A stretch of 63,062 nt of DNA, filler included, from Psammoneis japonica (Eukaryota): assembly GCA_008632985.1 (NCBI GenBank). It is 2 parts of 2 records of this genome, joined end to end, with 100 filler letters (N's around TTAATTAATTAA, not from the genome) between each part and the next. Parts side by side here need not be neighbours in the genome. Positions count along the whole stretch, not along the records: positions 31,937 to 63,062 come from QPGO01000398.1; 1 more part is not named here. One strand, 5' to 3'. The notes under the pieces are model-generated. The model did not search any database. It was not told the origin of the DNA and worked only from the letters and a program-made list of their open reading frames with translations. The position numbers were made by a program, and so were the translations under genes. This document shows positions 11,401 through 61,740 of this stretch, piece after piece. Numbering within the stretch: the first letter of the stretch is position 1; every line of letters starts with the position of its first letter.

Positions 11401-12522
11401 TCCCTCAAGTTTCACAAAGGAGCGTGGAAGTCTTGTAATGTCATTGTTGCTCAAGTCCAGCCTTTGGAGATTTGACGCCAATGTCTGGTTCGTCTCTAGC
11501 GCTTTTCCAATGGCCACGGCACCCTTGTCACCAATGGAATTGTTGTTGAGATAAAGCTCCGTCAATGTTTTATTCTTTTCTAGCGCTTTTCCAATGGCCA
11601 CGGCACCCTTGTCTCCAATGGAATTTTTGTAGAGATAAAGCACCGTCAATGCTTTATTCGTCTCTAGCGCTTTTCCAATGGCCACGGCACCCTCGTCTCC
11701 AATGGAATTGTTGTCGAGATGAAGCTCCTTCAATGTTTTATTCGTCTCTAGCGCTTTTCCAATGGCCACGGCACCCTCGTCTCCAATGGAATTGCTGTTG
11801 AGATCAAGCACCGTCAATGCTTTATTCGTCTCTAGCGCTTTTCCAATGGCCACGGCACCCTCGTCTCCAATGGAATTGTTGTCGAGATGTAGTGTCGTCA
11901 ATGTTTTATTCGTCTCTAGCGCTTTTCCAATGGCCACGGCACCCTCGTCTCCAATGGAATTGTTGTCGAGATAAAGCACCGTCAATGCTTTATTCGTCTC
12001 TAGCGCTTTTCCAATGGCCGTGGCACCCTCGACTCCAATGGAATTGCTGAAGAGATGAAGCTCCATCAGCGTTGTATTCATTTCTAGCGCTTTTCCAATG
12101 GCCACGGCACCCTTGTCTCCAATGGAATTGTTGTAGAGATAAATCTTCGTCAATGTTGTATTCATTTCAAGCGCTTTTCCAATGGCCGTGGCACCCTCGA
12201 CTCCAATGGAATTGATGTCGAGACCAAGCCCCGTCAATGTTTTATTCGTTTCTAGTGCTTTTCCAATGGACGCGGCACCCTCATCTCCAATGGAATTGTT
12301 GCCGAGATTAAGCACCTTCAATGTTGAATTCATTTCTAGCGTTTTTCCAATGCCCGCGGCTCCCTCGTCTCCAATGGAATTGCTGTTGAGATGAAGCCAC
12401 GCCAATGTTGGATCATTCTCTTGGAAGCGACGAATTTCCTCTTGCTCATAATAAGACAAAGCGACGACCCAATCCGCTGACAGGTCGATGCTGCTGGAAC
12501 TTGACGAAGACTGCTCTTGCAT
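8446..12522 (-). CDS. Roco protein: RI-type LRRs, ROC GTPase, COR, Cys cluster, C-terminal TIR domain; intronless
   Basis: 11 x 28-aa LRRs; P-loop GDGEAGKT, DCGGQ, SKVD; COR-like region; CHCC...CRNC; TIR motifs YVFLSHRG, TFMDD, IILSPKFLESRYCVMEL. Confidence 0.88.
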   Translation of the reverse strand: MQEQSSSSSSSIDLSADWVVALSYYEQEEIRRFQENDPTLAWLHLNSNSIGDEGAAGIGKTLEMNSTLKVLNLGNNSIGDEGAASIGKALETNKTLTGLGLDINSIGVEGATAIGKALEMNTTLTKIYLYNNSIGDKGAVAIGKALEMNTTLMELHLFSNSIGVEGATAIGKALETNKALTVLYLDNNSIGDEGAVAIGKALETNKTLTTLHLDNNSIGDEGAVAIGKALETNKALTVLDLNSNSIGDEGAVAIGKALETNKTLKELHLDNNSIGDEGAVAIGKALETNKALTVLYLYKNSIGDKGAVAIGKALEKNKTLTELYLNNNSIGDKGAVAIGKALETNQTLASNLQRLDLSNNDITRLPRSFVKLEGTCEYFNVIGNPLLEPPSEVAEQGLEAIARYFEAVDKGGAITSRQLKAVLVGDGEAGKTSLRNAIAGRFPARTEGEEERTIYLNVEPVQIDAPEGLSDDPITLMVYDCGGQQDYAVGQAPFMTASSLFLLVVAADKAHDDCYEDVVHRFLVLLQARAPGAVVQLVLSKVDLVPDELDEAERKQWLEERVRWLNDKVQGQLQAWRNAAAIREREQVALQDRVIAEDDSMERKKPPLLRILPNVLKVSVTSRSAIAGSQEQVSNTIFRHTQDHAEPRLSSVGTLIPKSWQELWKFFGAVLQCGTDADEEALFSVASSDDAIPLGEIGNMKTTTDGEMEIPAKGPYCSVKRLKSLWNKFRFLHSPLADDTTFGDALGLLEARGSIFVDAGLAYLQPSFVTDLIKPLIDHTLTPEKIESSEFGKEVETFVEICESKRIGLRQDIMEGLRDLTRSGELDALILPFLWRDFKIDQEDYRMILQMLLESDVVFASSPHPNSSTKEKASSRVSADVIPVVLFRLKKEIPSDWEDMWPERVPDEHEQRDLRFIMYRGCPTSLTAHFAAATHAYGNCVCACLNGAIVLDEKDRYIRSKLVEIDGGEPYLVFSVRYPKDDALREEIWGLLNGAVSFARDEVKDHFAGLQYDVVFACHCCVSAGRGQDSQLFGWSKVTNPDRRMSSHFCRNCRKNINFRVGEPIHNKIGRASRHKELLNQMMARVAHFPEAQEIGHDADGHCIQSPLADRKRTSDELSGPDASTNTAGERNVSGLYTQTLMDGIKTDVGELSMDEVPDPSSVWQVNLGGDPYVFLSHRGIDTKESIARPTRWFLTKRMGVKTFMDDGSLKTGEDQMHSLLEAAHTCSHAVIILSPKFLESRYCVMELNTFMMRRKRKNLKILSYLWKLDEVDRFAEAVKRMIYLEARIDDPARYLVGRLWPDLIERLKCDRDKPEWDDLSLKDELVRYVEEHRVDETTPPIPKSLEVFAHNIGPDKA
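11488..12411 (-). repeat. Coding tandem array of 11 x 84-bp LRR units
   Basis: Recurring gcgcttttccaatggccacggcaccctcgtctccaatggaattg at 84-bp spacing. Confidence 0.95.
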
Positions 12523-13049
12523 GTTTTTGAAAACGAGACTTGCTTCCAAGCAATCCAATCCCAGACAAGCAGCGCCAGTATCTTTTTTGTCTCACTCGAT
12601 TAATTGCGAAAGGCTGAGAGTCGTCCGTCACATTCGTTGGCTGCGTTGCCTCTCTGCGATGAAACCACTCGAATGGAGCAAATTTGTTGGTGTATCTGAC
12701 GAGAAGAGACAGTATAGTATCAAGGATCTGCAGTATAAAAGCTACACATATCTTGTGTAGGATCCTCTAGGAACGTTCATCGCGCGACTATGAAACCTTC
12801 TACTTCAAGGTGTGTCCTAAATAAAAAATAGGTAGCAGCTAGTACAATTTATTACGTGCCAAGGGCTCACTCGCCTCATTCAGCGAAGCACCGCGAGCGA
12901 GAAGAACATCAGCCATTGCTGCTGCTGATTTACTCGTTGCAATGGGTTGTACATCGGCGAAAGAGAGAAGTAAGTAATATGCACGATACATTGTGTATGT
13001 AAAGTATTTCATATTTATCACCTGTCATACTCACTAAATGTGTAGTTTC

Positions 13050-15594
13050 CTAATCCCCAGACGATCCGCCGGCACAGGGTTCATTGGCCTTTCCCTTGCA
13101 AGGGAACTTGGTGTGTTGGAGTGTTTTCCACTTGCGGCAGAACCGTTCCGCGTTGGAGCTACAGTGGTTTTGGAAGCAACCAACGATTGGTGGAGCCTGC
13201 TGTTGGATGAATTTTCTGGCTCCCTCTGTCACTGATGGCTGTCCTTGCTCGTGGCACTGCTCCCAAATCTTGACAACAATGTCTGGCTTTTCTGCCGTCT
13301 CCATTTTTCTCTTCTTCAGCTTGTGACGGTCTTCAAGGTCGTTGCCATCAGATCCTCTCTTTTTTTTGTTCGATGATTTTGATTTGACAAGCAAACTGTC
13401 ACCGGCAGCAACACCAGTGAGTGCACTGGCAGCAGCAGGTGCAACAATGTGCTCGCTCACACTTGCAATTTCGTTGAGTTTCATTTTCCAGGCTTGTCGT
13501 ACTTGAGAGGCTTGTTCGATTGGCAGTTTCGAGAGAACATCTTCCAGCGTAGCATTGGAGTCTCCAGCCCTGCGCCACTTCATTGCTTGATCAACCAAAA
13601 AAGTGATGTCCATTGCGCCTGGATGATTTGGAGGGATCATTGACTTTCGAAAAATAAAATCACAGGTGAGTTGTCCGATCGATTTTTGGAATGGAACTGC
13701 AGGGGCATTTGTCTGACTCAAGTTGCCTTCGCTTTCTCGCAGGACACACTTCCACTTTGATGGGACATGCTCCATGGGATCGTCATGAACAGCACCGACA
13801 TCCTTTGGCGACAATGCGTCCATGCGGCATTTTTCGGCATGCGTCAGGGTCTTGTGGCGAGCACTCTTCATGATGTCCACCATTGTTGCATCAGCCCACA
13901 CGCAGAACAGGTGAGCTGTCTTGCACAAGCTGTGCATTCCAAGCTTGACGTTGGGCTTGTTCAATGCTGTGCGAAACATTTTCTGATGACGAAGCGGGCA
14001 AAATTCAGGAAACTCTTCCTCCTCCCACAATGCAAGTCGAGCTGGATGTGGATCAGACTTTCCTTGAATTTGAGCAACTGACCCATGCACGCCCATTGCC
14101 GTCACGACGGTCAGGGTTGTGAGGAAATCGGATGTCTCCATCTCACTGAACTCATCTTGACGGAGGAAGAGGCGGATGGCAATGAGCATCATCACGAACA
14201 ACTGGAGGCCTTGTGTCGACGCGTTCCAGGTCTAGGTGGGACCTCGTACTACTGAACTGTGACATCGATAGTTTTTTGAATCACGTCGTATGTCGCGCAC
14301 GTAGATTTCTACGTGATTTTTTCGATATTTTGTGTCATTTTTACGGTACACTTATTGAGCGATCCGTCCAACAACTTTTGACATTTTTTGTTACAGCGCG
14401 ATTCTATAATGTCTTAAGAATCGCGTAGGGCAGGCGCATTTGCAAAAACGTCGAGTGGCAAGAGGCATAATTGTACCACAAACTTGGCAGTTTATTTGAT
14501 GTTGAAGATAAATATATCCATTAATTAAATTCTCGTACTACGGAGCTCGCACGTAGAATTCTACGGGCCCAATGTCACACGGAGTCCCACCTAGGACTGG
14601 AACCCGTCTGTCATGTTGCTCGAGAGGAGGTGGTTTCGGAGCAGGCGTGTGTCCTTGGGCAAGAACTGTTCGCAACCGCAGCTCTTGTGTTTCGCCCCAT
14701 CCTTCTTGTTTTTTGCACGCGACAATTGTTCCATGCCTCAGAGCACACAGGACTTCCTTTGCAGCGAAGCTTTGGATGCCCCGAATGTGCATCGCAGCCC
14801 TTGAATCGGTCCTCTGGTGGAAGACGAATGCAGTCAGCGCAATGATTCTGCAGTTTGCCGCACTGATCGTGAATCTCATGGAGTGTGTTCACTGCTGTGC
14901 ACAAGCCGGTGACACAATCTGGATCCTTCCACTCACCTGTGCATTCGATGGGAGCACCGCGCACATCTTTCACAATCTCATCATCGTCTCCCCGCAAAAG
15001 AACGCCCTTCTCATGACGCTTGCACTTGCAGAAAAGCACGATGCTCTTTGGGTCCATTGAAACGCAGTTTTTTGGTGCGTGCTCATGCAACATTGACAAA
15101 GAATCGCAGTCGCCAACAAGAATGAGGAAACGGCCAAGATTGCCCAGCACGCCATTGTGCTTTTGCTTGCTCTTCTTTTTGCAGCACCTGGTGCCAAGCC
15201 ATTTTTCAGCCTTCTCGTTGGACATCGTCAGTCCCATCTTTTCAGCCGCCTCGACTGTCTTTTCCTTTGCCATTGCCATGGCAGCAGCACTCGGAAGCGG
15301 CGCTCCATGCTTGATTTTGAAACGACCATTGTCATTGTCAGCATGAGTTCGATCAAAGCAACGGTTGCTGTGCGAGAAGGGGGCCAGAGCTCGCGTTGCC
15401 ATGGTGATTCTGGGCTTTTGTTTCCACTCGTTGTGCTCTCGAGGTTGCTTTGTTTGCTTTTTCACACATTTCAAACCTTGGTCGATGGCGCAATTTGGCT
15501 CGAGTCCACATGAACTTGTCAAACAAAAGTTGTGCTCGCTTTCAGTCATGGACTTAAAACACCAATTTCCCTCAAGTGGGTCAGTTTGGGGCAA
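13050..15594 (-). mobile_element. Degenerate tyrosine-recombinase element (Crypton-like), split by a MITE
   Basis: ORFs 14611-15594 and 13050-14201 flank the MITE. Motifs LFLRQDE (R), QGKSD (K), HSLCKT (HxxR degraded) and ARHKTLTHAEKC (H...Y with Y>C). No Tyr in either ORF. True element ends not found. Confidence 0.65.
14218..14608 (+). mobile_element. MITE copy 1 (391 bp), TpA-intact
   Basis: Imperfect TIRs GACGCGTTCCAGGTCTAGGTGGGAC / GTCCCACCTAGGACTGGAACCCGTC; 4-bp TSD TGTC. Confidence 0.92.
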
Positions 15595-31836: not shown

Positions 31837-31936
31837 NNNNNNNNNNNNNNNNNNNNNNNNNNNNNNNNNNNNNNNNNNNNTTAATTAATTAANNNNNNNN
31901 NNNNNNNNNNNNNNNNNNNNNNNNNNNNNNNNNNNN
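31837..31936. other. Artificial contig-join spacer
   Basis: 44 N + TTAATTAATTAA (stops in all six frames) + 44 N = 100 bp. Confidence 0.97.
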
Positions 31937-44753: not shown

Positions 44754-45150
44754 GACGGGTTCCAGTCCCAGGTGGGACTCCGTGTGACATTGGGCCCTCA
44801 GAATTCTGCGTGCGAGCTCCGCAGTAAATTTGTGCTGCAATGAAAATGTGAATGATTGCCAACAGAAAAAGAGGCAATTTTGCGAATGTGTCTCCTCCTT
44901 CATGCTTGCTGCACATCATTGACAGTTTGCCCGGGTGTGCTCTTCAGACATTAAAGAATGCACCCAGTGTGTTTTTGTTCTCACAAATGTTGAAAATAGA
45001 AAGCCTTTGGCTTTGCAAAACAGGGAGCATGAAACAATTTCGTAGAATGTGACATGCAGAAATGTGCGTGCGCGACATGCGACGCGATCCAAAAAACCAT
45101 TGATGTCACAGTGCAGCAGTGCGAGGTCCCACCCAGAGCTGGAACGCGTC
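44754..45150 (-). mobile_element. MITE copy 2
   Basis: GACGGGTTCCAG...GGAACGCGTC; TSD AAAG. Confidence 0.9.
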
Positions 45151-45623: not shown

Positions 45624-46012
45624 GACACGTTCCAGGTCTGGGTGGGACCTTGCACTGCTGAACTGTGACATCGACAGTTTTTTGAATCGTGTCGCATGTC
45701 GCGCACGTGCATTTCTACGTGATTTTGGCAAAATTTTGTGTGGTTTTACAGCACATTTGTCAGGCTGTCCATTGAACAACTTTTAATGTTTTTTTCTTCT
45801 GCGCCATTCTCGAGTGTCTTGAGAATGGCGTGGGGCAGGCGTGTTGTCCAAAACTTCGAGTGCGAACAGGGACAGATGCACCACAAACTTGGCCATTTTT
45901 TTTGTGTCGAAGACAAACACATCCATCAACCAGAGTGCGAACTGCAGAGCTTGCACACAGAATTCTGCGGGGCAAATGTCACAAAAAGTCCCACCTGGGA
46001 CTGGAACCCGTC
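45624..46012 (+). mobile_element. MITE copy 3
   Basis: GACACGTTCCAGG...GGAACCCGTC; TSD GGGG. Confidence 0.9.
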
Positions 46013-46269: not shown

Positions 46270-47310
46270 ATTTTGTGCCCTTGACCACTTTGCACTTTTG
46301 CTCTTCCTGGTTCATTGCCACTGGCCACTTTGTGCCCTTTGCGCCTTTGTGCCTTTTGCGCTGCCCTTGGCCAATTTGTGCCCTTTGCAACTTTGTGCCC
46401 TCAGCTGCTGTTTTGCACTCTCAATGCGTTCCAGCCCTGGGTGGGAGCTCGCAGCACTGACGTGTGACACAAATGATTTTTGTCATCCGTTGCATGTTTT
46501 GCACGCACATTTCTACGTGTGACATTTAAAAAAAATTGTCCAGACTTGCTGTTTTGCGAAGCCCCAGACGTTTTACATGACGAATTTATAGAAACAGCAA
46601 TGTGCCAGTTGCGTTCTTCAATGTCTGAAGAATGTAACTGGCCAAGTGAAAAACGATGTGCTTCAATCATGTGCGAGTTTGTGTGTTCGCAAAATTGCCT
46701 CATTTTCTGTTGGCAAACATTGACACTCTAATCACTGCATGATTTTGCTGCGGAGCTCGCACGTGGAATTCTACGGGCCCAATGTCACGCGGATTCCCAC
46801 CTGCGTCTGGAACGCGTCTCTCACTCCGTTTAGTGATTTTTTTTGTGCCCCAGGAAAGTTTGTGCCCTTTGTGATTTTGTGCCCTCAACTCCCATTTTTT
46901 GTCATTTTTTGTTTTGTGCCCTTGGCCATTTTGCACCTTTGAGATTTTGTGCCCTCAGTCATGTTGCACAATTCTTGATTTTGTGCCCTTGACCTTTTTG
47001 TGCCCTTGGCTGTTTTGTGCCCTTTCCTTTTTTTGTGCCCTTGAGCATTTTGTGCGTTTTGTGGTTTTGTGCCCTTGGCCATTTTGCGCCCTTTGTGACT
47101 TTGTGCCCTTGTCCATTTTGCGCCTTTTTTGGTTTTGGGCCCTCAGCCGCATTTGGTGCCCCTTGCGACATTGTGGTTTTGTGCCCTTTGCCATTTTGGA
47201 CCCTTCATGATTTTTTGCCCTTGGCAGCTTTGTGCCCTCAGCCACCATTTTGCACCCTCAGTCATTTTGTGACCTCAGCAATTTTGTGCCCCTGCCTGGT
47301 TTGTGCCCTT
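46270..47310 (+). repeat. Degenerate TTTTGTGCCC-motif array; continues at 54881-55010 after the Copia insertion
   Basis: Many ttttgtgccc(tt) motifs at about 20-bp spacing; the same sequence recurs near 56160, 57915, 59410 and 62260. Confidence 0.88.
46423..46818 (+). mobile_element. MITE copy 4, partly TpA-retaining
   Basis: AATGCGTTCCAG...GGAACGCGTC; TSD TCTC. Confidence 0.85.
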
Positions 47311-47480
47311 TGTCACGGTCAGCCAGAGCTCGCAGGACAGACAGACAGATGGACGGATGGACAGACAGAGCTCGTTCGCACTGACTCAGAGAGATGATGT
47401 CGAAGATTCTCTGACGCAGCCAGCTCATAGACCACAGAATGGTCGCAAACCTCTTTAGCTCACAATGTCTGCACAAGACA
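47311..47480 (+). repeat. 5' LTR
   Basis: tgtcacggtc...cacaagaca; matches 54711-54880. Confidence 0.95.
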
Positions 47481-47541
47481 GGTTGTGTGGCCCTCGTTGC
47501 CTCTGCAACCTTTTTGACAACAAACACCGCCAACACCCACC

Positions 47542-47937
47542 GACGGGTTCCAGCCCCAGGTGGGACTTTTTGTGACATTGGGCCCGCAGAATTCTGCGTG
47601 CGAGCTCCGCAGTAAAATCATCAAGCAATGAATGTGTGAATGATCGCCAACAGAAAAAGAGGCAATTTTGCGAACGCATCTCCTCCTTCACACTTGAAGC
47701 ACATTCTTTGTGGCATGCCCGGGTGTGTTCTTTGGACATTGAAGAACATGCCCTGTGCATTTTCATTGACATGAGTGCAGATGACAGAAAGCCTTTGGCT
47801 TTGCAAAACAGGCAGTGTGGAACAATTTTTTGCAACAGAACACGCAGAAATGTGCGTGCAAAACATGCGACGGATGACAAAAAACAATTGAGTCACAGTT
47901 CAGCAGTGCGAGGTCCCACCCAGAGCTGGAACACATC
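47542..47937 (-). mobile_element. MITE copy 5, nested in the Copia leader
   Basis: GACGGGTTCCAG...GGAACACATC; TSD CACC. Confidence 0.9.
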
Positions 47938-47944
47938 CACCACC

Positions 47945-50032
47945 ATGGCACCATCCTCCAGCACCAAACGCACTGGCAAGCCCAAATCGGGCAAGGGCTC
48001 TTCTGAATCACAGAAGCACAGCGCCACCGCGACGCCCTCACCATCTCATGGAGCGCGTCCCTCAAAAGAAGGGCGGGAAAGTCGACACGGCTCTTGATGA
48101 ACTCATCGAACATGCGCCCAAAAAGGCGCCGCGTGATGATGATGTCGACCGTCAGAACCCTGACGGCAATGCATTTAAGGACGATGACATGCGTGACAAT
48201 GACAGCATCGCAAAACTCACGTCAGTGACGAACTCGGATGACATGGACGTTTCTGACAACAACAGTGTCTCGTCTGACAAGTCCAACAAGTCCAATGCGG
48301 AAACCCCCCGCAAGCGCACCAAAAAGCACTTGTCCAAGCGCAAGTGTGAGAGGCTTGCCGCTCACATTGACAAAGTCACTGCAGCTGCATGCGCTGACAA
48401 GCGCATTGCACAACTGGCCAAACCGCTAGAAGACAAATTGACTGTGTCCCCTGAGTCATTCTTTGACTTCCTCTTTTGTCTTGAGGAATGTCTTCAGAGC
48501 TCCCCTGTGTTGGCAAAAGTCATGAAGCTCGACAACGGCATGTCTTTGACAAAAGGCTTCACCAAAGTGGTGCTGTGGGGTGTTGAAACCGACGAGGTCA
48601 TCGCCAAGAAATCCGATGACCAGACATCCATGCATTTCATGCAACGTGCGCTCAAGGCCCTGCTTGTTGCCTCGCATGACAAAGAGCTGCATCAGGTGAT
48701 TGTGTCTGATGAAAATGTCATGGATCATCTCCACAAGGACGGTGCAATGTGCTTCTGCCATGGCTTCAAGCAGCTGTTCCCGTTGCCCGAGATGCATGTC
48801 AACGGCATCCAGACAAAATTGTCCAAAGTTTCTCTCATTGACGATTGCAATGGCAATGTCAGCGCGTGCACGCATGAGTTCAGGCAGCACCTCTGCCTGG
48901 TTCACAAGCGTGACGACACGCTTGAGTGCACTCTTGTCGAGAAAGCCTTCAACAAACTCCAAACCGCCGCATGCAAGCCATTCGCAGCCAAGATGGCCCA
49001 GCATGAGACTGATTGGATGCACAAGAAACACGTCAAATGGACCGTCGAGACCCTGTTCAAGGAAGCCAACAGCCTCCAGATGGCGCTTGAGGCACAGAAT
49101 CTTTGGGACAAACCTTCCACGGAAGAAACCCAGTTCATGGCCATGCTGGCTCAGAACGAACAGCTCGCCAACTTCGCGCAGCAGATGACGAAGGTCGCCT
49201 CTGCTTTCCAGTCGTCCCTGCAGCAGAGTTTGCGGTGCAAGCATCGCAACAACCGTTGCAACCGCTGCGACAACCGCCGGGGACATCAGGGTCATGGTGG
49301 TTGCGGAAACGGTCGTGACCACGCACCTCGCCGTGGCTCCCCTCCGTTCTTGCACATTGAACCCGAGAACAAAGAAGCGGAAAAGGAGTGGGGCAACAAG
49401 AAGTGGCACTGGTGTGATGCATGCAAGATGCACTCCACTCGCCACAGCACCGTCACCCACAACAAATGCATTGCCTCCAACAACAACAAGAGTGGCAAGC
49501 GTCCTGGAAACGCACAACCCAAGTCTGGATGTGACCACAAGCACCAGCTCAGAACGAACAGCTCGTCAACTTTGCGCAGCAGATGACAAAGGTCGCCTCT
49601 GCTTTTCAGTCGTCCCTGCAGCAGAGTTCGCGGTGCAAGCATCGCAACAACCATTGCAACCACTGCGACAACCGCCAGGGACATCAGGGTCGTGGTGGTT
49701 GCGGAAATGGTCGTGACCGTGCACCTCGCCATGGTTCCCCTCCGTTCTTGTGCATTGAACCCGAGAACAAAGAAACGGAAAAGGAGTGGGGCAACAAGAA
49801 GTGGCGTTGGTGTGATGCATGCAAGATGCACTCCACTCGCCACAGCACCGGCACCCATGACGAATGCATTGCCTCCAACAACAACAAGAGCGGCAAGCGT
49901 CCTGGAAATGCGCAATCCAAGTCTGGATGTGACCACAAGCGCCAGAAGGCTGGTTCCAAGATTCAGCAGGATGTCGACAAGCTGCAGAAATTTGCTGCAA
50001 ACTTGTCCCTCTCTCAATCTGTTGCCTCTTGA
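47945..50032 (+). pseudogene. gag: Copia gag, degenerate
   Basis: ORF 48048-49586; knuckle-like WHWCDACKMHSTRHSTVTH; internal duplication. Confidence 0.75.
49149..49944 (+). repeat. 398-bp tandem duplication of the gag 3' part
   Basis: gctcagaacgaacagctcg at 49149 and 49547. Confidence 0.92.
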
Positions 50033-50099
50033 ACAGAAGAGGGGAGAAGGCAATTGGAAAACAACCAATGTTCCACACTGCTTAGGATCCGGTTTTGTT

Positions 50100-53000
50100 C
50101 ATGCACTTTGCCTGGATCGGTCAAAATCAAAGCAAAAGTGCGAGACTTTCACCACAAGTTTTAAAATTGCACCAACAGAGACATGGTCTTGTGAGCGAAA
50201 TTGTTGATGATGCCCGCGCATTTGAAACAGCTCTTGAAAACCGCGGACGCTTCATCCGTGGTGGCCATGTGCAAGCAAGACCTCACTCGACATCTGCATT
50301 TGTTGACAAACGCGATGCACCACAACTGGTCAAAGCACATGAGACTGCTGCTGCCAGAACTCCTGAGGAGAACAAGGAGTCACCAAACACTCTGGCAGAG
50401 CATGCTGCACATTTGGCAGATGAGGTGCCAACCCTCACATCCGACGAGACACATCTCATCATTGACTCGGGTGCTTCCACCACAATTTGAAACAATGAAA
50501 ATGACTTTGTTGGTTGCATGCGACCCATCCAAAACTTGGACTTAAAGGGTGTTGCATCTGGCCCAGCCATTGAGGGCATTGGCATGGTGAGATGCGGCTT
50601 TGTGGATGACAATGGCAACAATTTTGCCATTGATGTCAACAATGTGCTGTGTGCACCCACCTGCCCGGTTCATCTGCTGTGCCCTCAACAAGTGGCAGCT
50701 GCCAGCCCCAATGAGGACACAGATGGGTTCTTTGCAAGGGGCAAGTCCACGACAATGATCTGTGGACAACATCGCAAAACCGTGCAATGCCATCACGAGT
50801 TGAATCTGCCGATTCTTGCTGCGGCTCCAGGCTTTGGCAATTTTTGAGCTTTCTGCTCTGACATTGATGCAAATGGCAAACTGCCACCTCGCACCAACAC
50901 AAAGGCATGTTCGGCTTCGCATCCGGCTTTTGCTGTCACAACAAGAAAGCAAAAGGCGGCGGCCAACACAAACAAACAACAGACTTCTTACAATCAGCAG
51001 AGCAAAAAGTCAAACGAAAACAAAAAGAAACCAAGGCCTGCTCAGCCTCAACAGGACCTGCCAGTCCACGAGGGGGGCACAGAAGACAACCTGCTTCCCA
51101 TCCAATGCGACATGTTGAAATTGCACCATCGCATGGGACACGTTGGTTTTGAACAAATCAAAGAATGGGCCAAGATTGGTGCTGTGCCAAAACGCTTTGC
51201 AAAATGCAAAGCTCCAGTCTGCAAAGCATGTGCTTGTGCAAAAGCCAAGCGCAAGGCAGCTCAACGTGGTCACCGCATCAATGAATGCCACGACAACGCT
51301 CCAGGTCAAGGAGCATCTGCGGATCAACTTGATGCGAGTCATCCGGGCCCACTTCCCACTTCTCGTGGCAAACCAACTGCTTGCAGGTGCAAACATTGCA
51401 CTCTGTGGATTGATCACTTCTCTGGATTTATCCATCCTCACATGCAAGAGTCCACTGGAGGAAAAGAGACCTTGACTGGCAAAACCAAGCTCGAGAGATT
51501 CACAGCAAAACACAATGTAAAAATCGAGCACATTCATGCCGATTGACGGCACATTCGCCGCCGCAGAGTTCACACAACACTGCGTTGAAAACAAACAACG
51601 AAACTCCTTTTGTGGAGCAGGAGCACACTGGCAAAACGGCATCTTGGAATGCTGCACAGGCGTCATCACCTCGATGGTGCGAACACACCTGTCACACGCT
51701 CAGCCCCTCTGGTCTGATGCAGCAACCATGGAATTATGGCCATTTGCCATCAGACAGGCTGTCAATTTCCACAATGTGTGCATCCGAAAAGGAAAAGAGA
51801 AAAACCCCTGGGAGCTGTTCACTGACAAGAAACCGCCATTTCAAATGGACGATTTTTGCGTGTGGGGGTGTCCTGTTTACATCGTGGACAAAAGTGTCCA
51901 AGGCGGGACTCACATTGGAAGATGGGCCGAACGGTCATGCCAAGGGGTGCACGTGGGACATTCGCTGGACCATGCCAGCAATGTCCATTTGGCATGGGAC
52001 CCCACAACCAAACACGTCTTGCCACAATTTCATGTCACATTCGACGAAAACTTTGCAACAGCAGTGCCTGGAAAGACATCAAGCAATGATCTTGAGGCAG
52101 CTCTTGAAAAATCATTTGATGACCATGCAAACACTTGGACTCACCATGATGAACATTTCGACCACAATCAACATTGTTTTGAAAAGAATGTTTGGAGCAA
52201 GGACGACTTGCTCTGCAAACATGGTGTTGACCCTCAAGCGTGCAAACAGGCGCAAAAGACCAACCACAAATCATGAGGGAGAAAAAGAGACTGTGCTGGA
52301 CAAGAAAAGCCAGACGATGATGACACACCATCTGAGATTCTGCCAGCTGTTGATGTCTCGGCCGACACACCGACACATGTGGCAGCTGCACTGGCAGACA
52401 CAACAATGCCAGCAGAATCGGCACACGCTGAAGCCTCCGAGGCTGCGCCACCTGCAGCAGGAGGTTCTGTGTCGGAGAGAGCAGAGGGGACCCACTCATT
52501 GTCAAACCGACTGCTGTCAGTTGACAATGCAACACCGTTGATTGTAGAAAATGCAGTCACCCAGGGCCCAACTGTGGCAACTCCAGAGGATGCTGCAACT
52601 TCTTCGCCAACGAAAGAAGCCCTCCAACATTCAAACAATGAAGCAGACTGTGCTCGTCATCAACTTCATGAATGCAAATGCCAAAAAGGTTTAGATGACG
52701 ATGCGACTTGCACAACAGCACAGAACAATGCAAAAAACAGCAACTCACCTGATGCGAACGCGCACATCACAACACCTCTGTGCCACAAAGAAGTTGCAGC
52801 TGAGCCACACGAAGAGCTTGCACATCTGATGGCACTTGTGGGTTCAGCAGACAATGACATGCTTCTCGACGAAGACACATGGAATGAATCCAGTCCACTC
52901 ACTTTCGAAGCAGCGGCGCCAGGAGACGTCGACACCCTGACCCAGGGCCAGATGAAAAGAGCACCAGACCGTGCCAAATTTGAAAAAGCCCAAGTTCCAG

Positions 53001-54520
53001 AAACACAAGGGCTGGCAGATGTGGATGCATGGGAACACATGCCACGTTCTGAAGTGCCAAAAGACCACCGGCTGTCAAGTGCAATCTGGTCACACAAAAG
53101 AAAAAGGAAACCAAGTGGTGAGCTTTCAAAACACAAAGCCAGAATGTGCGTCGACGGTTCCAAACAACAACGTGGAATGGACCATTGGGACACATTCGCC
53201 CCAGTCGTCGCATGGAGTGCGGTGTGACTGACATTGTGTCCAGCGGCAATCGCCGGTCTGAAAAGCAGACAAGTGGATCATGCGCAAGCATTTCCACAAG
53301 CAGAGCTGGAAGAACCAGCATGTGTGAGACTCCCAGAAGGGTGGGAAGTGAAAGACAAAAATGGAAACATCATGCCAGACATGGCATGCAAACTGAAAAA
53401 GAACTCACGCGGCATGAAAACTGCTGCACGAAACTGGTTCCAGAAACTGTCAAAGGGGCTGGAACAATGTGGTTTCAAGAAATCAAAAATGGACCCATGT
53501 CTGTTCATCAGAAATGACTGCATCATCTGCTTGCACACAGATGATTGTTTGGTTTTTGCTCCAACGAACTACATTGTCACTGCACTCATGCAAGAACTCA
53601 AGCAAGACGAGCTTCAACTTGCCGACGAAGGCGATGCACCCGCTTTCCTCAGTGTGGATGTCGCCAATGCCGTCGACGGCAAAATCCACATGACCCAGAC
53701 AGGTCTTGTTGATTCCACGTTGAAAGACCTCGGTCTGAGGTCCCACAACAATGAACCATTGCAGAACAGGCCACAAACAAAGGCTGCTCCAGCAGCACAA
53801 ATGCTGCACCCTGACACAGACGGTCAGGAGCATCAAGAACCGTGGAACTGCCGGTCTGTTGTCGGAAAGATGAGCTCTCTGGCACAAATGACTCGACTGG
53901 ACATTGCAGTGGCAGCGCACATGTGCGCCAGATTTTCCAACTGCCCAAAGGCATTGCACGAACAAGCAGTTGAGCGCATCGGACGTCATCTGCTGGCAAC
54001 TTCAACAGACGGCATTGAGCTCCGGCCGAAAGGGAAATTCTCCCTGGGTGCATGTGTTGACAGCGACTTCGCGGGAATGTGGCACAGAAATTTTGCCCAT
54101 CTCCACGAATCGCACCTGTCATGATCAGGGTGTGTTGCCACATTTGCAGGCTGTCCAATCTGTTGGAAGAGCGAGGCTGAACTCGTTGCACTGTCACAGT
54201 GCCTGAGAGAGCCACTTCCAATGAGAGCTGTGCCAGAAGAACTGTCCAAAACCATGGATTTTGAACTGGCAAATTCACACATTGAATCTGGTTCTCTGGA
54301 AACTCGTGTGCTTCCACACAAGCTTCCCCCGTCCACAGCGCATGAAGACAAAACAGGATGCACTGCACTGGCCACCTCTGACAAGCAATGCAGAGCTGGA
54401 GCCAAGCACACAAGCATCAAATGGATGCACTTTTGGGACCACACAAAACGTGGTTCTGTGAAGAAGGCAGTGAAAGTTGGCGACACATTGAGCAGTCCAA
54501 ACAGACTGCTGCTTCACTCA
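50100..54520 (+). pseudogene. pol: Copia pol (protease, integrase, RT, RNase H) with stops and frameshifts
   Basis: IIDSGAS; LHHRMGH...CKAC; HIHAD, QNGILE; HKARMCVDG, DTFAPVV, CLHTDDCL; ACVDSDFAG, HEDKTGC, KHTSIKW. Confidence 0.92.
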
Positions 54521-54710
54521 AAAACAGCATTTTTGGACGTGTGCAAACAGCATTTTTCGCTTCGCTTGTGCTCGAAGCACGAGGGAGAGAAACACCCTGG
54601 ACACACCCCAGACATTTTCCAGGAATGCTCTGGAGGCTGTGCGCAGATGTTGCTGCATCGGCTTGGCTCCATTGCTGGCATTGGTCAGAGCCCTCGTTGA
54701 CACGAGGGAG

Positions 54711-54880
54711 TGTCACGTTCAGCTGGAGCTCACAGGACAGATGGACAGACGGACGGATGGACAGACGGAGCTCATTCGCACTGACTCAGAGAGATGATGT
54801 CGAAGATTCTCTGACGCAGCTGGCTCGTGGACCACAGAACAGTCGCAAGCCTCTTTGGCTCACAACATCCACACAAGACA
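54711..54880 (+). repeat. 3' LTR
   Basis: Preceded by PPT gagggag and followed by TSD ccctt. Confidence 0.95.
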
Positions 54881-55539
54881 CCCTTTGTGATTTGGTGCCC
54901 TCAACAGACATTTTTTGTCCTTTTTGATTTTGTGCCCTTGGCCATTTTGCTGGTCACGACAGAGCTGCAGAACAACAAGAACCTGCCCGATGAAGAGCAT
55001 GGGGCAAAGGAGAGAAAGTGCGTGAGATGCCTGAAGCACTTCACGGCAGGGAGCTCCAAGAACGGAGATGCGGAAGGGAGCGCACCCAGGAAACGCAAGA
55101 GGGAGGACTTTTGCAGGAAGATTGTGGCAGAGCGTGACAGGAAAGTGGAGGAGGGGGGCAATGGGCTGGGGGATGAGGAAAGCCACGTGGCGGGTTGCAC
55201 TGAGACACACGAGCTGGAGCCAACACCTGTTTGGCAGACAATGTGTGAAAAGTGGCAGTCATGTTTGTTGCAAATGACGTTGCAGACACAATCTAAATTG
55301 AGCGACTGCACTCCACGGCACCAGCTGGAGAGCAACTGGGGAAGGGCACAACACGGGTGGTGCCTTGGGAAACCAGTCAACTGATCTGTTGTCAGTCAGC
55401 TGTTGAATGTGTTTGAGTGGGTGCGCCGGAGTTTTTGGCCCGCTCACTTTCCACGTGGCCTGGAACAACCCAAATCTGTGTAGATTCAGCACGCTTTGCC
55501 CTGCAGAACAGTTTTTGGGAGCGTTCTCTGGCTCGCGGC

Positions 55540-56005: not shown

Positions 56006-57133
56006 TCATTTTCGCATTTTTGCATTTTCGCTGGCGGTCTTCAAATCAAGAACAATCTCGCCACATGTTGCAGGGGGGCGCTGAAGGGCCACAGCCCACT
56101 GGCAGGGTGCTGATCAAACAAGATTTGCGGCACAAGTGTTTGGTGCTGGGGGCACCTTTGAGATTTTGTGCCCTCAGCCATGTTGCGCAATTCTTGATTT
56201 TGTGCCCTTGACCTTTTTGTGCCCTTGGCTGTTTTGCGCCCTTTCCTTTTTTTGTGCCCTTGAGCATTTTGCCCCATCTCGTGGTTTTGTGCCCTTGGCC
56301 ATTTTGTGCCCTTTGTGACTTTGTGCCCTTGTCCATTTTGTGCCTTTTTTGGCTTTGGGCCCTCAGCCGCATTTGGTGCCCCTCATGATTTTGTGCCTTC
56401 AGCAATTTTTGGCCATTGTGGTTTTGTGGCCTTTGCCGCCTTGGACCCTCTCTGATTTTTTGCCCTTGGCAGCTTTGTGCCCTCAGCCACCATTTTGCGC
56501 CCTCAGTCATTTTGCGGCCTCAGCAATTTTGTGCCCCTGCCTGGTTTGTGCTCTTTGTGATTTGGCGCCCTCAACAGACATTTTTTGTCCTTTTTGATTT
56601 TGTGCCCTTGGCCATTTTGCTGGTCACGACAGAGTTGCAGAACAACAAGAACCTGCCCAACGAAGAGCGGGGCAAAGGAGAGAAAGTGCGCGAGATGACA
56701 AAGTTGGACCCAACAGCACATGCATCAGCACGCGAGTCCAAGTCGTTGGCTGCCTTGCCGTGTGAATGCCCAGCAGATGACAAAGAGACATGTGGACAAA
56801 TGCAGATTTTTTCAAGGAAATCAAACGTCAAGGAAAACAAGCGCGTCGTTTCAAGGAAAACAAACACGTCATTTGAAGGAAAACAAGCGTGTCATTTCGA
56901 GGAAAACAAACACATCTTTTCAAGGAAAACAAACGCGTCGTTTCAGGGAAAACAACACGTGGTTTCAAGGAAAACAAACGTGTCTTTTCAAGGAAAACAA
57001 ACCTGTCAAACAAACGTGTCATTTCAAGGAAAACAAGCACGTCGTTTCAAGAAAAACAAACGCGTCATTTCAACAAAAACAAACACGTTGTTTCAAGGAA
57101 AACAAGTGTGCTTTTTTTTAAGAAAAACAGACC

Positions 57134-57387
57134 TTTCGCATTTTCGCATTTTCGCATTTTCGCATTTTCGCATTTTCGCATTTTCGCATTTTCGCATTTT
57201 CGCATTTTCGCATTTTCGCATTTTCGCATTTTCGCATTTTCGCATTTTCGCATTTTCGCATTTTCGCATTTTCGCATTTTCGCATTTTCGCATTTTCGCA
57301 TTTTCGCATTTTCGCATTTTCGCATTTTCGCATTTTCGCATTTTCGCATTTTCGCATTTTCGCATTTTCGCATTTTCGCATTTTCGC
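57134..57387 (+). repeat. Perfect (TTTTCGCA)n octamer array
   Basis: 30 perfect units at 57141-57380 plus partial flanking units. Confidence 0.97.
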
Positions 57388-57456: not shown

Positions 57457-57852
57457 GACGTGCTCCAGCTCCAGGTGGGACCTCACACCACTGAACTGTG
57501 ACACAGTCATTTTTTGTCATCCGCCGCATGTTTCGCGCGCAAATTTCTGCGTGTTCTGTTGCAAAAAATTGCTCCACACTGCCTGTTTTGCGAAGCCAAA
57601 GGCTTTCTGTCATCTGCGCTTGTGCCGACAAAAACGCGCTGGGTGTGTTCTTTGATGTCTAAAGAACACACCCGGGCATGCTGCAAAGAATGTGCTTCAA
57701 GTGTGGAGGAGGAGATGCGTTCGCAAAATTGCCTCTTTTTCTTTTGGCGATCATCCGTGCATGTGCTGCTTGGCAATTTTGCTGCGGAGCTGGCACGCGG
57801 AATTCTGCGGGCCCAGTGTCACAAAAAGTCCCGCCCAGGACTGGAGCCCGTC
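57457..57852 (+). mobile_element. MITE copy 6
   Basis: GACGTGCTCCAG...GGAGCCCGTC; TSD GGCA; empty site cactggcaggg in sister units. Confidence 0.9.
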
Positions 57853-60077
57853 GGCAGGGCGCTGATCAAACAAGATTTGTGGCGCAAGAGTTTGGCGCTG
57901 GGGGCACCTTTGAGGTTTTGTGCCCTCAGCCATGCTGCCCAATTCTTGGCTTTGTGCCCTTGACCTTTTTGTGCCCTTGGCTGTTTTGCGCCCTTTCCTT
58001 TTTTTGCGCGCTTGGGCACTTTGCCCCATCTCGTGGTTTCGCGCCCTTGGCCATTTTGCGCCCTTTGTGACTTTGTGCCCTTGGCCATTTTGCGCCTTTT
58101 TGGGTTTTTGGGCCCTCAGCCGCATTTGGCGCCCCTCATGATTTTGCACCCTCGGCAGCTTTTGGCCATTGTGGTTTTGTGCCCTTTGCCACCTCGGACC
58201 CTTTCTGATTTTTTGCCCCAGGCAGCTTTGTGCCCTCAGCCACCATTTTGCACCCTCAGTCATTTTGTGACCTCAGCAATTTTGTGCCCCTGCCTGGTTT
58301 GTGCTCTTTGTGATTTGGCGCCCTCAACAGACATTTTTTTGTCCTTTTTGATTTTGTGCCCTTGGCCATTTTGCTGGCCACGACAGAGTTGCAGAACAAC
58401 AAGAACCTGCCCGATGAAGAATGTGGGGCAAAGGAGAGAAAGTGTGCAAGATGACAAAGTTGGGCCCAACAGCACATGCATCAAAACAAAACCAAACATC
58501 TGTGTTTTAAGCGCTGCTGCGCTTCCACCCTGCAACTCCGGCAACAAGCCAACCCACACCCCCAGCGCACCATTGGTGCGGCAGGAGCAAACAGCGATTG
58601 GCCGAGATTTTCGTCACCCGAGGGTGACGCCGCGCCGAAATGACTTGCAGCGGTTCTTGTGCCTCGTGCAGCCAACCGTTTGGCTTCCCGCATGCTTGAT
58701 TTAAAGACTGGTTTGAACACAGCCAGCCAGTTTCGAAGCCTGTGTGTTGAGTGTGTTGGGTGGTCTTCCACCAAATCCAGGAGGAGCGCTTTGTCTCTGG
58801 CCAGACAATCATCCGTTCGGGAGCAAATGGCTCCAACCTTCGCTTCCGCATCTCTCCTCTGAGAAGATTTCCTGGTTTCCGAGTCGTGCAGGTTTTTTCA
58901 AGGAAAACAAATGTGTCGTTTCAAGGAAAACAAACACGTTTTTTCAAGGAAAACAAACATGTCGTTTGAAGGAAAAAAAAATGCGTCATTTCGAGGAAAA
59001 CAAACATGTCTTTTGAGGGAAAACAAACGTGCCGTTTCAGGGAAAACAAGCACGTGGTTTCAAGGAAAACAAGCACGTCTTTTCAAGGAAAACAAACCTG
59101 CAAAACAAACATGTCATTTCAAGGAAAACAAGCACGTCGATTCAAGAAAAACAAACACGTTGTTTCAACAAAAACAAACGCGTTGTTTCAAGGAAAACAA
59201 GTGTGTTTTTTTTAAGAAAACAAACCTTTCGCATTTTCGCATTTTCGCATTTTCGCATTTTCGAATTTTCGCATTTTCGCTGGTGGTCTTCAAATCAAGA
59301 ACAATCTCGCCACATGTTGCAGGGGGGCGCTGAAGGGCCACAGCCCACTGGCAGGGCGCTGATCAAACAAGATTTGCGGCGCAAGTGTTTGGCGCTGGGG
59401 GCACCTTTGAGATTTTGTGCCCTCAGCCATGTTGTGCAATTCTAGATTTTGTGCCCTTGACCTTTTTGTGCCCTTGGCTGTTTTGCGCCCTTTCCTTTTT
59501 TTGTGCCCTTGAGCATTTTGCCCCATCTCGTGGTTTTGTGCCCTTGGCCATTTTGTGCCCTTTGTGACTTTGTGCCCTTGTCCATTTTGTGCCTTTTTTG
59601 GCTTTGGGCCCTCAGCCGCATTTGGTGCCCCTCATGATTTTGTGCCTTCAGCAATTTTTGGCCATTGTGGTTTTGTGCCCTTTTCCGCCTTGGACCCTTT
59701 CTGATTTTTTGCCCTTGGCAGCTTTGTGCCCTCAGAAACCATTTTGCGCCCTCAGTCATTTTGTGACCTCAGCAATTTTGTGCCCCTGCCTGGTTTGTGC
59801 TCTTTGTGATTTGGCACCCTCAACAGACATTTTTTGTCCTTTTTGATTTTGTGCCCTTGGCCATTTTGCTGGTCATGACAGAGCTGCAGAACAACAAGAA
59901 CCTGCCCAACAAAGAGCGGGGCAAAGGAGAGAAAGTGCGCGAGATGACAAGGTTGGACCCAACAGCGCATGCATCAGCACGCGAGTCCAAGTCGTTGGTT
60001 GCCATGCCACGCGATTGTCCAGCAGATGACAAAGAGACGTGTGCGTTCATTGGGAATCGTCTGGACAAATGCAGGTT

Positions 60078-61740
60078 TTTTCAAGGAAAACAAACGTGTC
60101 GCTTCAAGGAAAACAAACACGTCGTTTGAAGGAAAACAAACACGTCGTTTGAAGGAAAACAAACACGTCATTTCAAGGAAAACAAGCGTGTCTTTTCAAG
60201 GAAAACAAACACGTCATTTCAGGGAAAACAAACACGTGGTTTCAAGGAAAACAAACACATCTTTTCAAGGAAAACAAACATGTCTTTTCAAGGAAAACAA
60301 ACCTGTCAAACAAGCGTGTCATTTCAAGGAAAACAAGCACGTCGTTTCAAGAAAAACAAACGTGCACTTTCAACAAAAACAAACATGTTGTTTCAAGGAA
60401 AACAAATGTGTTTCTTTTGAGAAAAACAAACATGTCTTTTCAAGTGAAACAAACACGTCTTTTCAAGAAAAACAAACACGTCATTTCAAGGAAAACAAAC
60501 GTGTCTTTTCAAAGAAAACAAACACGTCGTTTCAAGGAAAACAAACGTGTCTTTGCAAGGAAAACAAACACATTGTTTCAAGGAAAACAAACACGTCGTT
60601 TCAAGGAAAACAAGCGCGTCATTTCAAGGAAATCAAACAGGAAAACAAACATGTCGTTTCAAGGAAAACAAACACGTCATTTCAAGGAAAACAAACACGT
60701 CGTTTCAAAAAAAACACACACAATTTTTTTTGACAAAAACAAGCGCGCTGTTTCAAGGAAAACAAACATGATGCGCTCCAGGTCCAGGTGGGACCTTGCA
60801 CTGCTGAGCTGTGACATCGACAGTTTTTTGAATCGCGTCACATGTCGCGCACGTGCATTTCTGCGTGATTTTGGCAAAATTTTGTGTGGTTTCATGGCAC
60901 AATTGTCGGGCCATCCATTGAACAACTTTTGACATTTTTTTCTTCTGCGCCATTCTCGAGTGTCTCAAGAATGGCGCAGGGCAGGCACGCTGTCCAAAAC
61001 TTCGAGCGCGAACAGGGACAGATGTGCTGCAAACGCAAGCTTGGCCATTTTTTTGTGTCGAAGACAAATGTGTCCATTGGCCAGAGCACGAACTGCAGAG
61101 CTCGCACGCAGAATTCTGCGGGGCAAATGTCACAAAAAGTCCCGCCTGGGGCTGGAACCCGTCACATGTCTTTTCAAGAAAAACAAACACGTCTTTTCAA
61201 GGAAAACAAGCACGTCGTTTCAAGGAAAACAAGCACGTCGTTTCAAGGAAAACAAACACGTTGTTTCAAGAAAAACAAACACGCCATTTCAATGAAAACA
61301 AACATGTTGTTTCAAGGAAAACAAGCGTGTGTTTTTGAGAAAAACAAACGTGTTGTTTCAAGGCAGACAAACACATGTTTTTAAGAAAAAACAAACTTTG
61401 CAAGGAAAACAAACGTGTCTTTTCAAGGAAAACAAGCACGTCTTTTCAAGGAAAACAAGTGTGTCTTTTCAAGGAAAACAAACATGTTGTTTCAAGGAAA
61501 ACAAACACGTCATTTCAAGGAAAACAAACACGTTGTTTTGATGAAAACAAACATGTTGTTTCAAGGAAACCAAACATGTTTTTTCAAGGAAAACAAGCAT
61601 GTCTTTTCAAGGAAAACAAACATGTCTTTTCAAGGAAAACAAGCGTGTCTTTTCAAGGAAAACAAACACGTCATTTCAAGGAAAACAAACACATCATTTC
61701 AAGGAAAACAAACACGTCGTTTCAAGGAAAACAAACACAA
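60078..61740 (+). repeat. Approximately 22-bp minisatellite (TTTCAAGGAAAACAAACACGTC-like); also at 56810-57125 and 58895-59225
   Basis: Dozens of caaggaaaacaa cores. Confidence 0.92.
60770..61163 (+). mobile_element. MITE copy 7
   Basis: GATGCGCTCCAGG...GGAACCCGTC; TSD ACAT. Confidence 0.9.

Follow-up and report, generated by a model that had tools for sequence, protein, structure and literature searches.

In the genome of the diatom Psammoneis japonica (GenBank assembly GCA_008632985.1), a Copia long terminal repeat (LTR) retrotransposon at positions 47311–54880 of the 63,062-nucleotide stretch of DNA analysed here has lost nearly every tyrosine codon of its polyprotein. This whole stretch, hereafter the window, consists of two parts joined end to end across 100 filler letters, with positions 31,937 to 63,062 coming from QPGO01000398.1. 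Very probably, the element was rewritten almost to saturation by a process that turns the dinucleotide TpA into TpG or CpA on either strand and that acted after the element had been copied into DNA. Read from the sequence, we regard as established the signature itself, its polarity and strand symmetry, its action after the two LTRs had become separate DNA copies, and its restriction to sharply bounded repeats; the involvement of an enzyme, its mode of targeting and a role in defence are what we infer from that signature.

Tyrosine replacement in the Copia polyprotein

The pol region was delimited with the closest uninterrupted relatives of the element, the metagenome-assembly proteins P0151 (1472 aa, 60% identity in the reverse transcriptase, RT) and P0152 (1454 aa, 56%). 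Residues 17–434 of P0151 align by tblastn to the protease and integrase N-terminus (50191–51543, plus strand), and residues 435–1448 to the integrase core and SH3 domain, the RT and RNase H (51545–54493, plus strand). The element is colinear with both polyproteins, in the order protease-integrase-RT-RNase H and with an RT of the RVT_2 type; over 50191–54493 the alignment with P0151 is broken only by a single frameshift between 51543 and 51545, which offsets the second part by one base. Pfam matches follow the Copia order, with gag_pre-integrs at 50848–51543 and SH3_retrovirus and RVT_2 in the second part of pol; Pfam returns no rve match for the integrase core, although this region still aligns to the relatives through the integrase.

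The six peptide strings that the initial annotation had read as Copia motifs with tyrosine replaced by histidine or cysteine all lie on the plus strand. Histidine codons are found in HKARMCVDG (53132–53158, CAC), GMDHWDTFAP (53174–53203, CAT), QVDHAQAFPQA (53270–53302, CAT) and CLHTDDCL (53528–53551, CAC), and cysteine codons in WNCRSVVG (53843–53866, TGC) and ACVDSDFAG (54050–54076, TGT). For five of the six the closest relatives carry the tyrosine and the reading stands: among the seven closest, the ancestral residue is present in six for GxDY, in five each for QVDY and AYVD, and in all seven for YTDD and YRS, and the best 150 of 19,599 homologues have tyrosine in the YxDD column 133 times and in the YRS column 136 times. 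The sixth, HKAR, does not hold up, for P0151, P0152 and P0153 have histidine there themselves. Four of the seven close relatives do have tyrosine, and a wider set of 113 includes 29 Tyr, 26 Trp, 19 His, 18 Phe and 17 Leu; as the position is variable and is His in the three closest relatives, no replacement is demonstrable. The catalytic box of the RT (53534–53545, plus strand) thus reads HTDD where relatives read YTDD, with CAC in place of the expected TAY; its threonine is ancestral, six of the seven relatives having YTDD in full.

The same replacement pervades the polyprotein. Of the 2106 residues in the eight stop-to-stop gag-pol pieces, 3 are tyrosines (0.14%), 5.7% are His and 3.7% Cys, while the median tyrosine content of the best 150 homologues is 3.1%. 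At the 29 pol sites where P0151 and P0152 both have tyrosine, the window copy has Cys 12 times, His 12 times, Arg (CGY) and Phe twice each, and Tyr once, which departs strongly from the 516 of 725 agreed residues that it keeps overall (Fisher p = 4e-15); tryptophan is kept at 17 of 17 sites and histidine at 24 of 25. The 150 homologues yield a similar picture: in 12 columns with at least 60% tyrosine, the window copy has one Tyr, four Cys, two His and five other residues, and it keeps the aspartate in all 20 conserved Asp columns. Tabulated against P0151 and P0152 at conserved tyrosines and at NTA-type codons, the replacements match loss of TA, as the initial annotation had expected. Val became Ala at 14 of 44 agreed sites and Thr became Ala at 6 of 30; Ile, agreed at 31 sites, gave way to Thr (6), Val (5) and Met (3), and Leu, agreed at 61, to Pro (6) and Ser (4). 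A single TA>CA or TA>TG change could account for 66 of the 209 replaced residues, and a single CpG>TpG or CpG>CpA change for 30. Apparent TA>CG double changes also occur, a conserved Tyr being CGY (Arg) at 53171 and 53408 and a conserved Val being GCG at 51319 and 53915. Such doubles are not the direct product of a one-step change on one strand, and may reflect hits on both strands or a later change.

Related elements do not have this pattern as a rule. Six of them, taken from metagenome contigs and treated with the same script, keep 11–19 agreed tyrosines with at most 4 His plus Cys, and 2–7 of their replacements fit a TA change and 6–10 a CpG change. TpA observed/expected ratios are 0.47–0.89 across all 75 related metagenome loci, which were retrieved by peptide patterns, one of them (CGAGAHWQ) destroyed in the window copy. 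Nevertheless, judging from the proteins compared, the window copy does not appear to be unique. Among the 150 representatives, P0075 keeps 1 of 16 conserved tyrosines, P0117 none of 12 and P0101 none of 8, all three with His and Cys instead, and P0069 keeps 3 of 9; these four come from four different sources in the NCBI, Logan and ENA collections. As they are only 33–35% identical to the window RT, they would represent other families with the same signature, and possibly other genomes; an origin in other species is possible. In the protein database, no closer paralogue exceeds 66% identity.

TpA loss across repeat DNA

The depletion extends well beyond the element. Bases 1–31,800 form a gene-dense half with uninterrupted long frames, including a leucine-rich repeat–Roc–TIR protein and a questin-oxidase-like protein, and dinucleotide analysis gives TpA observed/expected ratios of 0.33–0.70, about 0.5, in each 2-kb interval. 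From 32 kb to the end of the window the ratio is 0.01–0.10 in every interval, with elevated TpG and CpA (1.2–2.0) and CpG at 0.54–1.10. These intervals belong to a TpA-free repeat block (31963–63062) of nested transposons and 8-, 23- and 34-bp satellites that reaches the window end. The first 31,800 bases contain 1146 TA dinucleotides and the last 31,063 only 93, of which the 7,570-base Copia element has 16 (observed/expected 0.03–0.04). Loss of TpA paired with gain of CpA and TpG is thus clustered, over the 31-kb block and again at 13052–15554, and within this window host open reading frames of the genic half (0.75–3.8% Tyr, TA observed/expected about 0.5) were spared. A preceding T or a following A is commoner at the 93 surviving TA than in the genic half, and the survivors may be new mutations.

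The direction of change can be read at the DNA level from a repeat of about 390 bp resembling a miniature inverted-repeat transposable element (MITE). Its copy at 14218–14608 (plus strand), flanked by TGTC on both sides, has 29 TA and serves as an outgroup; the copies at 45624–46012 and 60774–61163 have 3 and 0. When the first two copies are aligned, 21 sites are TA in the outgroup and CA (12) or TG (9) in the other, and the reverse occurs once. Taken together, this TA-rich copy, the outgroup proteins and the six control elements back the derivation of CAY and TGY from TAY by loss of TpA that the initial annotation had proposed. Both strands were hit alike, as follows from the ratios of 12 His to 12 Cys and of 12 CA to 9 TG.

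The two LTRs of the element tell when this happened. They differ at 21 of 170 positions, 20 of them transitions and 19 located within pyrimidine–purine (YpR) dinucleotides; there are 6 CA-versus-TG double differences and 2 of TA versus TG, and the 86 bases that are not part of YpR steps account for just 2 of the differences. Nine repeat pairs together show 45 CA/TG double differences against 16 of the purine–pyrimidine analogues. The LTR differences and the strand symmetry exclude editing of the sense-strand RNA and favour a DNA-level process acting on each finished copy. CA/TG differences number 6–12 in each comparison of transposed copies and in the LTR pair, and 0–2 in tandem duplicates, whose CG-versus-TG/CA differences number 6–26, so that most differences between the young duplicates are CpG decay. 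The TpA event would therefore have come soon after insertion and before the duplications, with CpG decay following later. As a rough estimate from small numbers, if the CA/TG pairs derive from TA, about 93% of TA alleles would have been altered, at a rate perhaps a few hundred times background, CpG decay being about ten times slower.

A second TpA-free element, in the genic half (13052–15554, minus strand), bears on targeting. High TA density ends at 13051 and resumes at 15555; between these positions TA is near-absent except in the nested TA-rich copy of the MITE-like repeat described above, outside which only 4 TA remain. Boundaries this sharp, within about 100 bases, indicate that the process is aimed at particular elements. 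Neither of the two long frames of this region (393 and 329 aa) matches Pfam above thresholds, and a PDB sequence search with them came back empty. A protein-atlas search pointed to a tyrosine recombinase (score 0.91, 134–141 shared features), and the element is possibly Crypton-like, a candidate to be taken as a lead only.

The consequences for stop codons are in keeping with the code. Neither of the two changes, A>G after T and T>C before A, can make a new stop codon: TAA becomes TGA or is lost, and TAG is lost. TAG, TAA and TGA triplets, counted on both strands, number 50, 86 and 1226 in the block and 477, 507 and 1202 in the genic half. With TAA and TAG lost, the number of open frames of at least 100 aa is doubled (148 in the block versus 75 in the genic half), many of them overlapping on both strands. 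In principle, then, the initial annotation was right that the process disables elements by missense and not by making stops, but this copy also has the frameshift and five in-frame TGA stops in pol, two in its first part (50488, 50845) and three in its second (52274, 53225, 54122). Since the stops at 53225 and 54122 each align to Arg in 113 relatives, they are attributable to CGA>TGA changes, that is, to CpG decay. Such decay reads as a second, weaker signature in the same element, with CpG observed/expected at 0.55–0.8, Arg>Cys at six sites, Arg>His at two and Arg>stop at two.

Independent reads come from one DNA run, X1, which contains 41% of the sampled 31-letter words of the element; no RNA run is listed for these words, and two runs of the same sample have next to none of them. 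A total of 2639 X1 contigs lie on the element, and their differences from the window copy comprise 84 A>G, 82 T>C, 119 C>T, 108 G>A and 39 transversions, so that transitions make up 393 of 432 places. The 40 places listed of 440 differing ones amount to 36 events: in 7, X1 has TA against TG or CA in the window; 4 are TG/CA swaps; in 1, X1 has TG against TA; 10 have CG in X1; 4 have TG or CA in X1 against CG in the window; and 10 fall outside YpR steps. Some X1 copies lack one base at 51541/51544, the site of the frameshift, and one 216-letter contig over 53501–53716, spanning the HTDD box, differs from the window at 4 letters. None of the X1 pieces listed covers the entire element.

Structure of the element and its surroundings

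Taken as a whole, 47311–54880 has the anatomy of a complete but dead Ty1/copia LTR retrotransposon. It is bordered by a 5-base target-site duplication, CCCTT, read directly at 47306–47310 and repeated at 54881–54885, and by LTRs of 170 bp with TG...CA ends (5' LTR 47311–47480, 3' LTR 54711–54880, all on the plus strand) that match at 87.6%. Immediately 3' of the 5' LTR is a sequence resembling a primer-binding site (PBS), GGTTGTGTGGCCC (47481–47493, plus strand). No tRNA gene was found in the window, and hence no match for its primer; the initial annotation took its GGTTGTG to derive from GGTTATG, which remains a conjecture, as none of the 75 related loci has the motif and the four relatives with clear LTRs have another sequence directly after the LTR. 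The polypurine tract, ACGAGGGAG (54702–54710, plus strand), stands directly upstream of the 3' LTR; AAGAGGGAG adjoins the start of the 3' LTR in the relatives L029, L048 and L060 and lies near the LTR start in L051. The decamer GCCCTCGTTG, 3' of the PBS at 47490–47499, recurs just upstream of the purine tract (54690–54710), where it forms an inverted repeat, CCCTCG/CGAGGG. Between the 5' LTR and pol are a nested, hypermutated copy of the MITE-like repeat (47540–47937, plus strand; 1 TA), which matches 44754–45145 at 81% and the minus strand of 57457–57854 at 86%, and a gag-like open frame (47892–49583, plus strand) of 564 aa with 0 Tyr and no Pfam match above thresholds. The gag region contains an internal tandem duplication of 398 bp (49149–49945). 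No further Copia pol fragment was found elsewhere in the window.

The MITE-like repeat has 25-bp terminal inverted repeats and occurs as two subfamilies with common ends. Sequence matches place its further copies, apart from the nested one, at 44754–45147, 45624–46012, 46426–46818 (minus strand), 57457–57854 (minus strand) and 60774–61163. Summed X1 contig depth is 54,785–130,378 over 47564–48069, which covers the nested copy, versus 150–390 over the rest of the element, indicating that the family is very abundant. The block also has three TA-free satellites: 17/34-bp arrays of the TTTGTGCCCTTG type (46996–47143, 56197–56619, 59446–59868), into one of which the Copia element inserted; 23-bp arrays of TCAAGGAAAACAAACGCGTCGTT (56828–57105, 58895–59201, 60079–60767, 61164–61738); and a perfect 8-bp array of TTTCGCAT with 31.8 copies (57134–57387). 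Other long frames of the block have no Pfam match above thresholds. In the genic half, an uninterrupted frame of 1381 aa at 8449–12591 (minus strand) combines, according to Pfam, leucine-rich repeats, a Roc GTPase and a C-terminal TIR domain, an architecture reminiscent of immune receptors. The questin-oxidase-like gene has its named homologues in the diatoms Odontella (52%), Triceratium (51%), Epithemia (49%) and Nitzschia (44%), followed by other ochrophytes, which marks the host as a diatom; the long frames without interruption in this half agree with that.

Explanations and related systems

We propose that TpA would have been converted to TpG or CpA on either strand once the element existed as DNA, and that the same process would have struck all other repeats of the neighbouring 31 kb and one isolated element among the genes. 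Because tyrosine codons all begin with TA, Tyr would pass to His (CAY) and Cys (TGY) about equally, while NTA codons would become NCA or NTG (Val>Ala, Ile>Thr or Met, Leu>Pro or Ser) and TAA and TAG would be erased, leaving long but false open stretches in each of the six reading frames. The element would have been disabled mainly by dense missense, including the change of YTDD to HTDD in the RT active site, and slower CpG>TpG/CpA decay would then have added stops. As for the chemistry, enzymatic deamination of adenine at TpA (A to hypoxanthine, read as G) is the most likely; it would be targeted to repeats or silent chromatin, come in bursts, and strike DNA that is double-stranded or briefly unwound.

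That His and Cys are simply normal for this Copia lineage can be practically discounted; it is true of HKAR, with His in P0151, P0152, P0153 and 19 of the 113, but at the remaining five positions the closest relatives carry Tyr, though some have Phe at three of these, the YxDD and YRS columns contain Tyr in 133 and 136 of the 150 homologues, and six relatives keep 11–19 agreed tyrosines. There is very little to recommend a sequencing or assembly artefact, in which a modified base at TpA in repeats is miscalled as TG or CA. The fact that X1 has only 41% of the words of the element would fit, yet at 6 sites the LTRs disagree despite their common local context, one having CA and the other TG, which a context-driven error would not produce; X1 contigs closely match TA-free stretches (the 216-letter contig with 4 differences) and X1 copies vary among TG, CA, TA and CG; the frameshift, the CpG-derived stops and the tandem duplication are real decay; and four other database sources also contain Copia proteins with their tyrosines erased. 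Slighter still are the prospects of ADAR-like editing of the transcript (A to I after U) fixed through reverse transcription, although ADAR does favour A>G next to a 5' U, as cited in the Discussion of a preprint on the chlorarachniophyte Bigelowiella natans (Mettrop et al., bioRxiv 10.64898/2026.01.13.699255). Sense-strand editing predicts Tyr>Cys alone and not the 12 His and 12 Cys observed, the two LTRs disagree at sites derived from TA, and satellites and elements bounded by terminal inverted repeats bear the signature to the same degree.

Two further rivals accept a DNA-level event and alter its timing or its chemistry. Were extrachromosomal element DNA edited before integration, with APOBEC-like timing, copies would arrive already mutated, in agreement with the sharp edges at 13052 and 15554 and with the untouched TA-rich repeat inserted into the TpA-free element. 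We nonetheless consider this improbable: TA is missing to the same degree throughout the 31-kb block, whose content includes three satellite families and nested elements of varied kinds, the repeat nested in the Copia element was mutated along with it, and the B. natans mutations occur in integrated, single-copy DNA (Mettrop et al., bioRxiv 10.64898/2026.01.13.699255). The remaining rival, somewhat less improbable yet still unlikely, makes thymine the damaged base: within silent chromatin, the T of TpA would undergo enzymatic modification such as hydroxylation, and mispairing or faulty repair would then turn it into C. By sequence, T>C before A is inseparable from A>G after T on the opposite strand. 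TpA-biased hypermodification of thymine is a feature of other protists. No positive evidence for thymine damage is seen here, and the authors of the B. natans preprint, as far as its text goes, prefer adenine deamination, given their ADAT2-like candidate.

Several points weigh against the account of TpA deamination after copying into DNA or narrow what it can claim. X1 provides no clean confirmation: its share of the words is 0.41 and, where differing places are listed (40 of 440), it has the other letter alone; with so few places listed, and X1 possibly being the source sample, it counts as weak support. The left edge of the block coincides with two 44-base N gaps (31837–31880 and 31893–31936), where TA density collapses, so that the junction of genes and block may be a scaffold join and not contiguous. 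The TA-rich repeat lying untouched within the TpA-free element implies that the process acts intermittently, or that region alone does not decide what it hits. LTR divergence, so far as it can be read, dates the change after reverse transcription and not strictly after integration, and TA being its own reverse complement, the damaged base may be A or T. Retrieval by peptide patterns would have under-sampled mutated relatives among the 75 normal loci. Finally, what is observed here is a fossil signature and not an enzyme, a modified base or a mutation newly arisen.

It is enticing to go further and suggest, tentatively and with confidence a little short of even, that diatoms, which are but distant relatives of B. 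natans, possess a dedicated DNA-editing genome defence that erases TpA in place, in bursts and hundreds of times faster than background, from newly inserted or silenced repeats, killing their proteins through tyrosine loss and leaving a TA-free, stop-poor heterochromatin; such a defence would be ancient and common to stramenopiles, alveolates and rhizarians. If this is true, the enzyme should be findable by comparing genomes with and without the signature. If the phenomenon is real, TpA-directed hypermutation of DNA would be known from two independent cases, the second in a major group of phytoplankton, with ordinary transposons and not integrated giant viruses as targets, and taken to saturation. 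The fossil read-out (Tyr>His/Cys, no TAA or TAG, TA observed/expected near 0) can be scanned for in any genome. It also sets a trap for annotation, as TpA-free DNA has twice as many long frames, and tyrosine-less 'proteins' are already in public databases.

Among known systems, repeat-induced point mutation (RIP) of ascomycete fungi is alike in being a dinucleotide-specific transition hypermutation of repeats that yields sharply bounded blocks of odd composition and diverging LTR pairs. Its direction is the opposite: RIP takes CpA/TpG to TpA, enriches A+T and creates stops, whereas here TpA is destroyed, G+C enriched and stops removed, and its signature (C>T at CpA with excess TpA and stops) is the reverse of what is seen here. 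RIP furthermore depends on duplication and on a premeiotic stage. Diatoms do carry RID-like DNMT4 genes with unknown function (Hoguin et al. 2023, PMC9998398), in connection with which the accessible text mentions no mutation signature. Hyper-editing by ADAR of repeat-derived double-stranded RNA in animals resembles the present case in A>G with a 5' U/T preference, but it acts on RNA, is confined to animals, and would yield neither LTR differences nor effects on DNA transposons and satellites nor the T>C half on the sense strand; an ADAR-type pattern of A>G on the sense strand only was not found, given the equal His and Cys and the LTR differences at TA-derived sites. APOBEC3 acting on retroelement cDNA is alike as deaminase-driven inactivation with a dinucleotide context, but it produces C>U (G>A on the plus strand), is strand-biased and creates stops (TGG>TAG), none of which is seen here. 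Methylation-driven CpG decay, present as the second layer, cannot remove TpA.

The closest counterpart, and the sole precedent that turned up in full-text literature searches, which yielded no report of TpA loss in diatom repeats, is the B. natans system. In mutation-accumulation lines of this species, de novo TpA>TpG/CpA hypermutation was measured in integrated DNA: two integrated viral regions mutate about 1000-fold faster, their A>G/T>C changes are all on TpA, domains of the reverse transcriptase and DDE types are enriched in low-TpA coding sequences, and the proposed enzyme is an ADAT2-like deaminase, still unproven there (Mettrop et al., bioRxiv 10.64898/2026.01.13.699255). In both cases TpA alone is hit, the outcomes are TpG and CpA, and the effect is local to foreign or repeat DNA; the B. 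natans activity is not found in all lines or at all times, and here the untouched TA-rich repeat likewise implies action that is not continuous. The differences lie in host, target and extent. B. natans is a chlorarachniophyte with integrated giant-virus and virophage DNA, whereas P. japonica is a diatom, and thus a stramenopile, in which an LTR retrotransposon, small inverted-repeat transposons and satellites were affected; a rate was measured there, against a fossil signature alone here; and the depletion here (observed/expected 0.01–0.10) is near saturation, compared with 0.45 in the giant-virus region of B. natans. Replacement of Tyr by His or Cys and erasure of stops are not described in the abstract, Results or Discussion of the preprint. 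The sequence comparisons thus support the view that a recently described type of hypermutation extends to a new lineage, where it appears to have acted on ordinary transposons and to have run to saturation.

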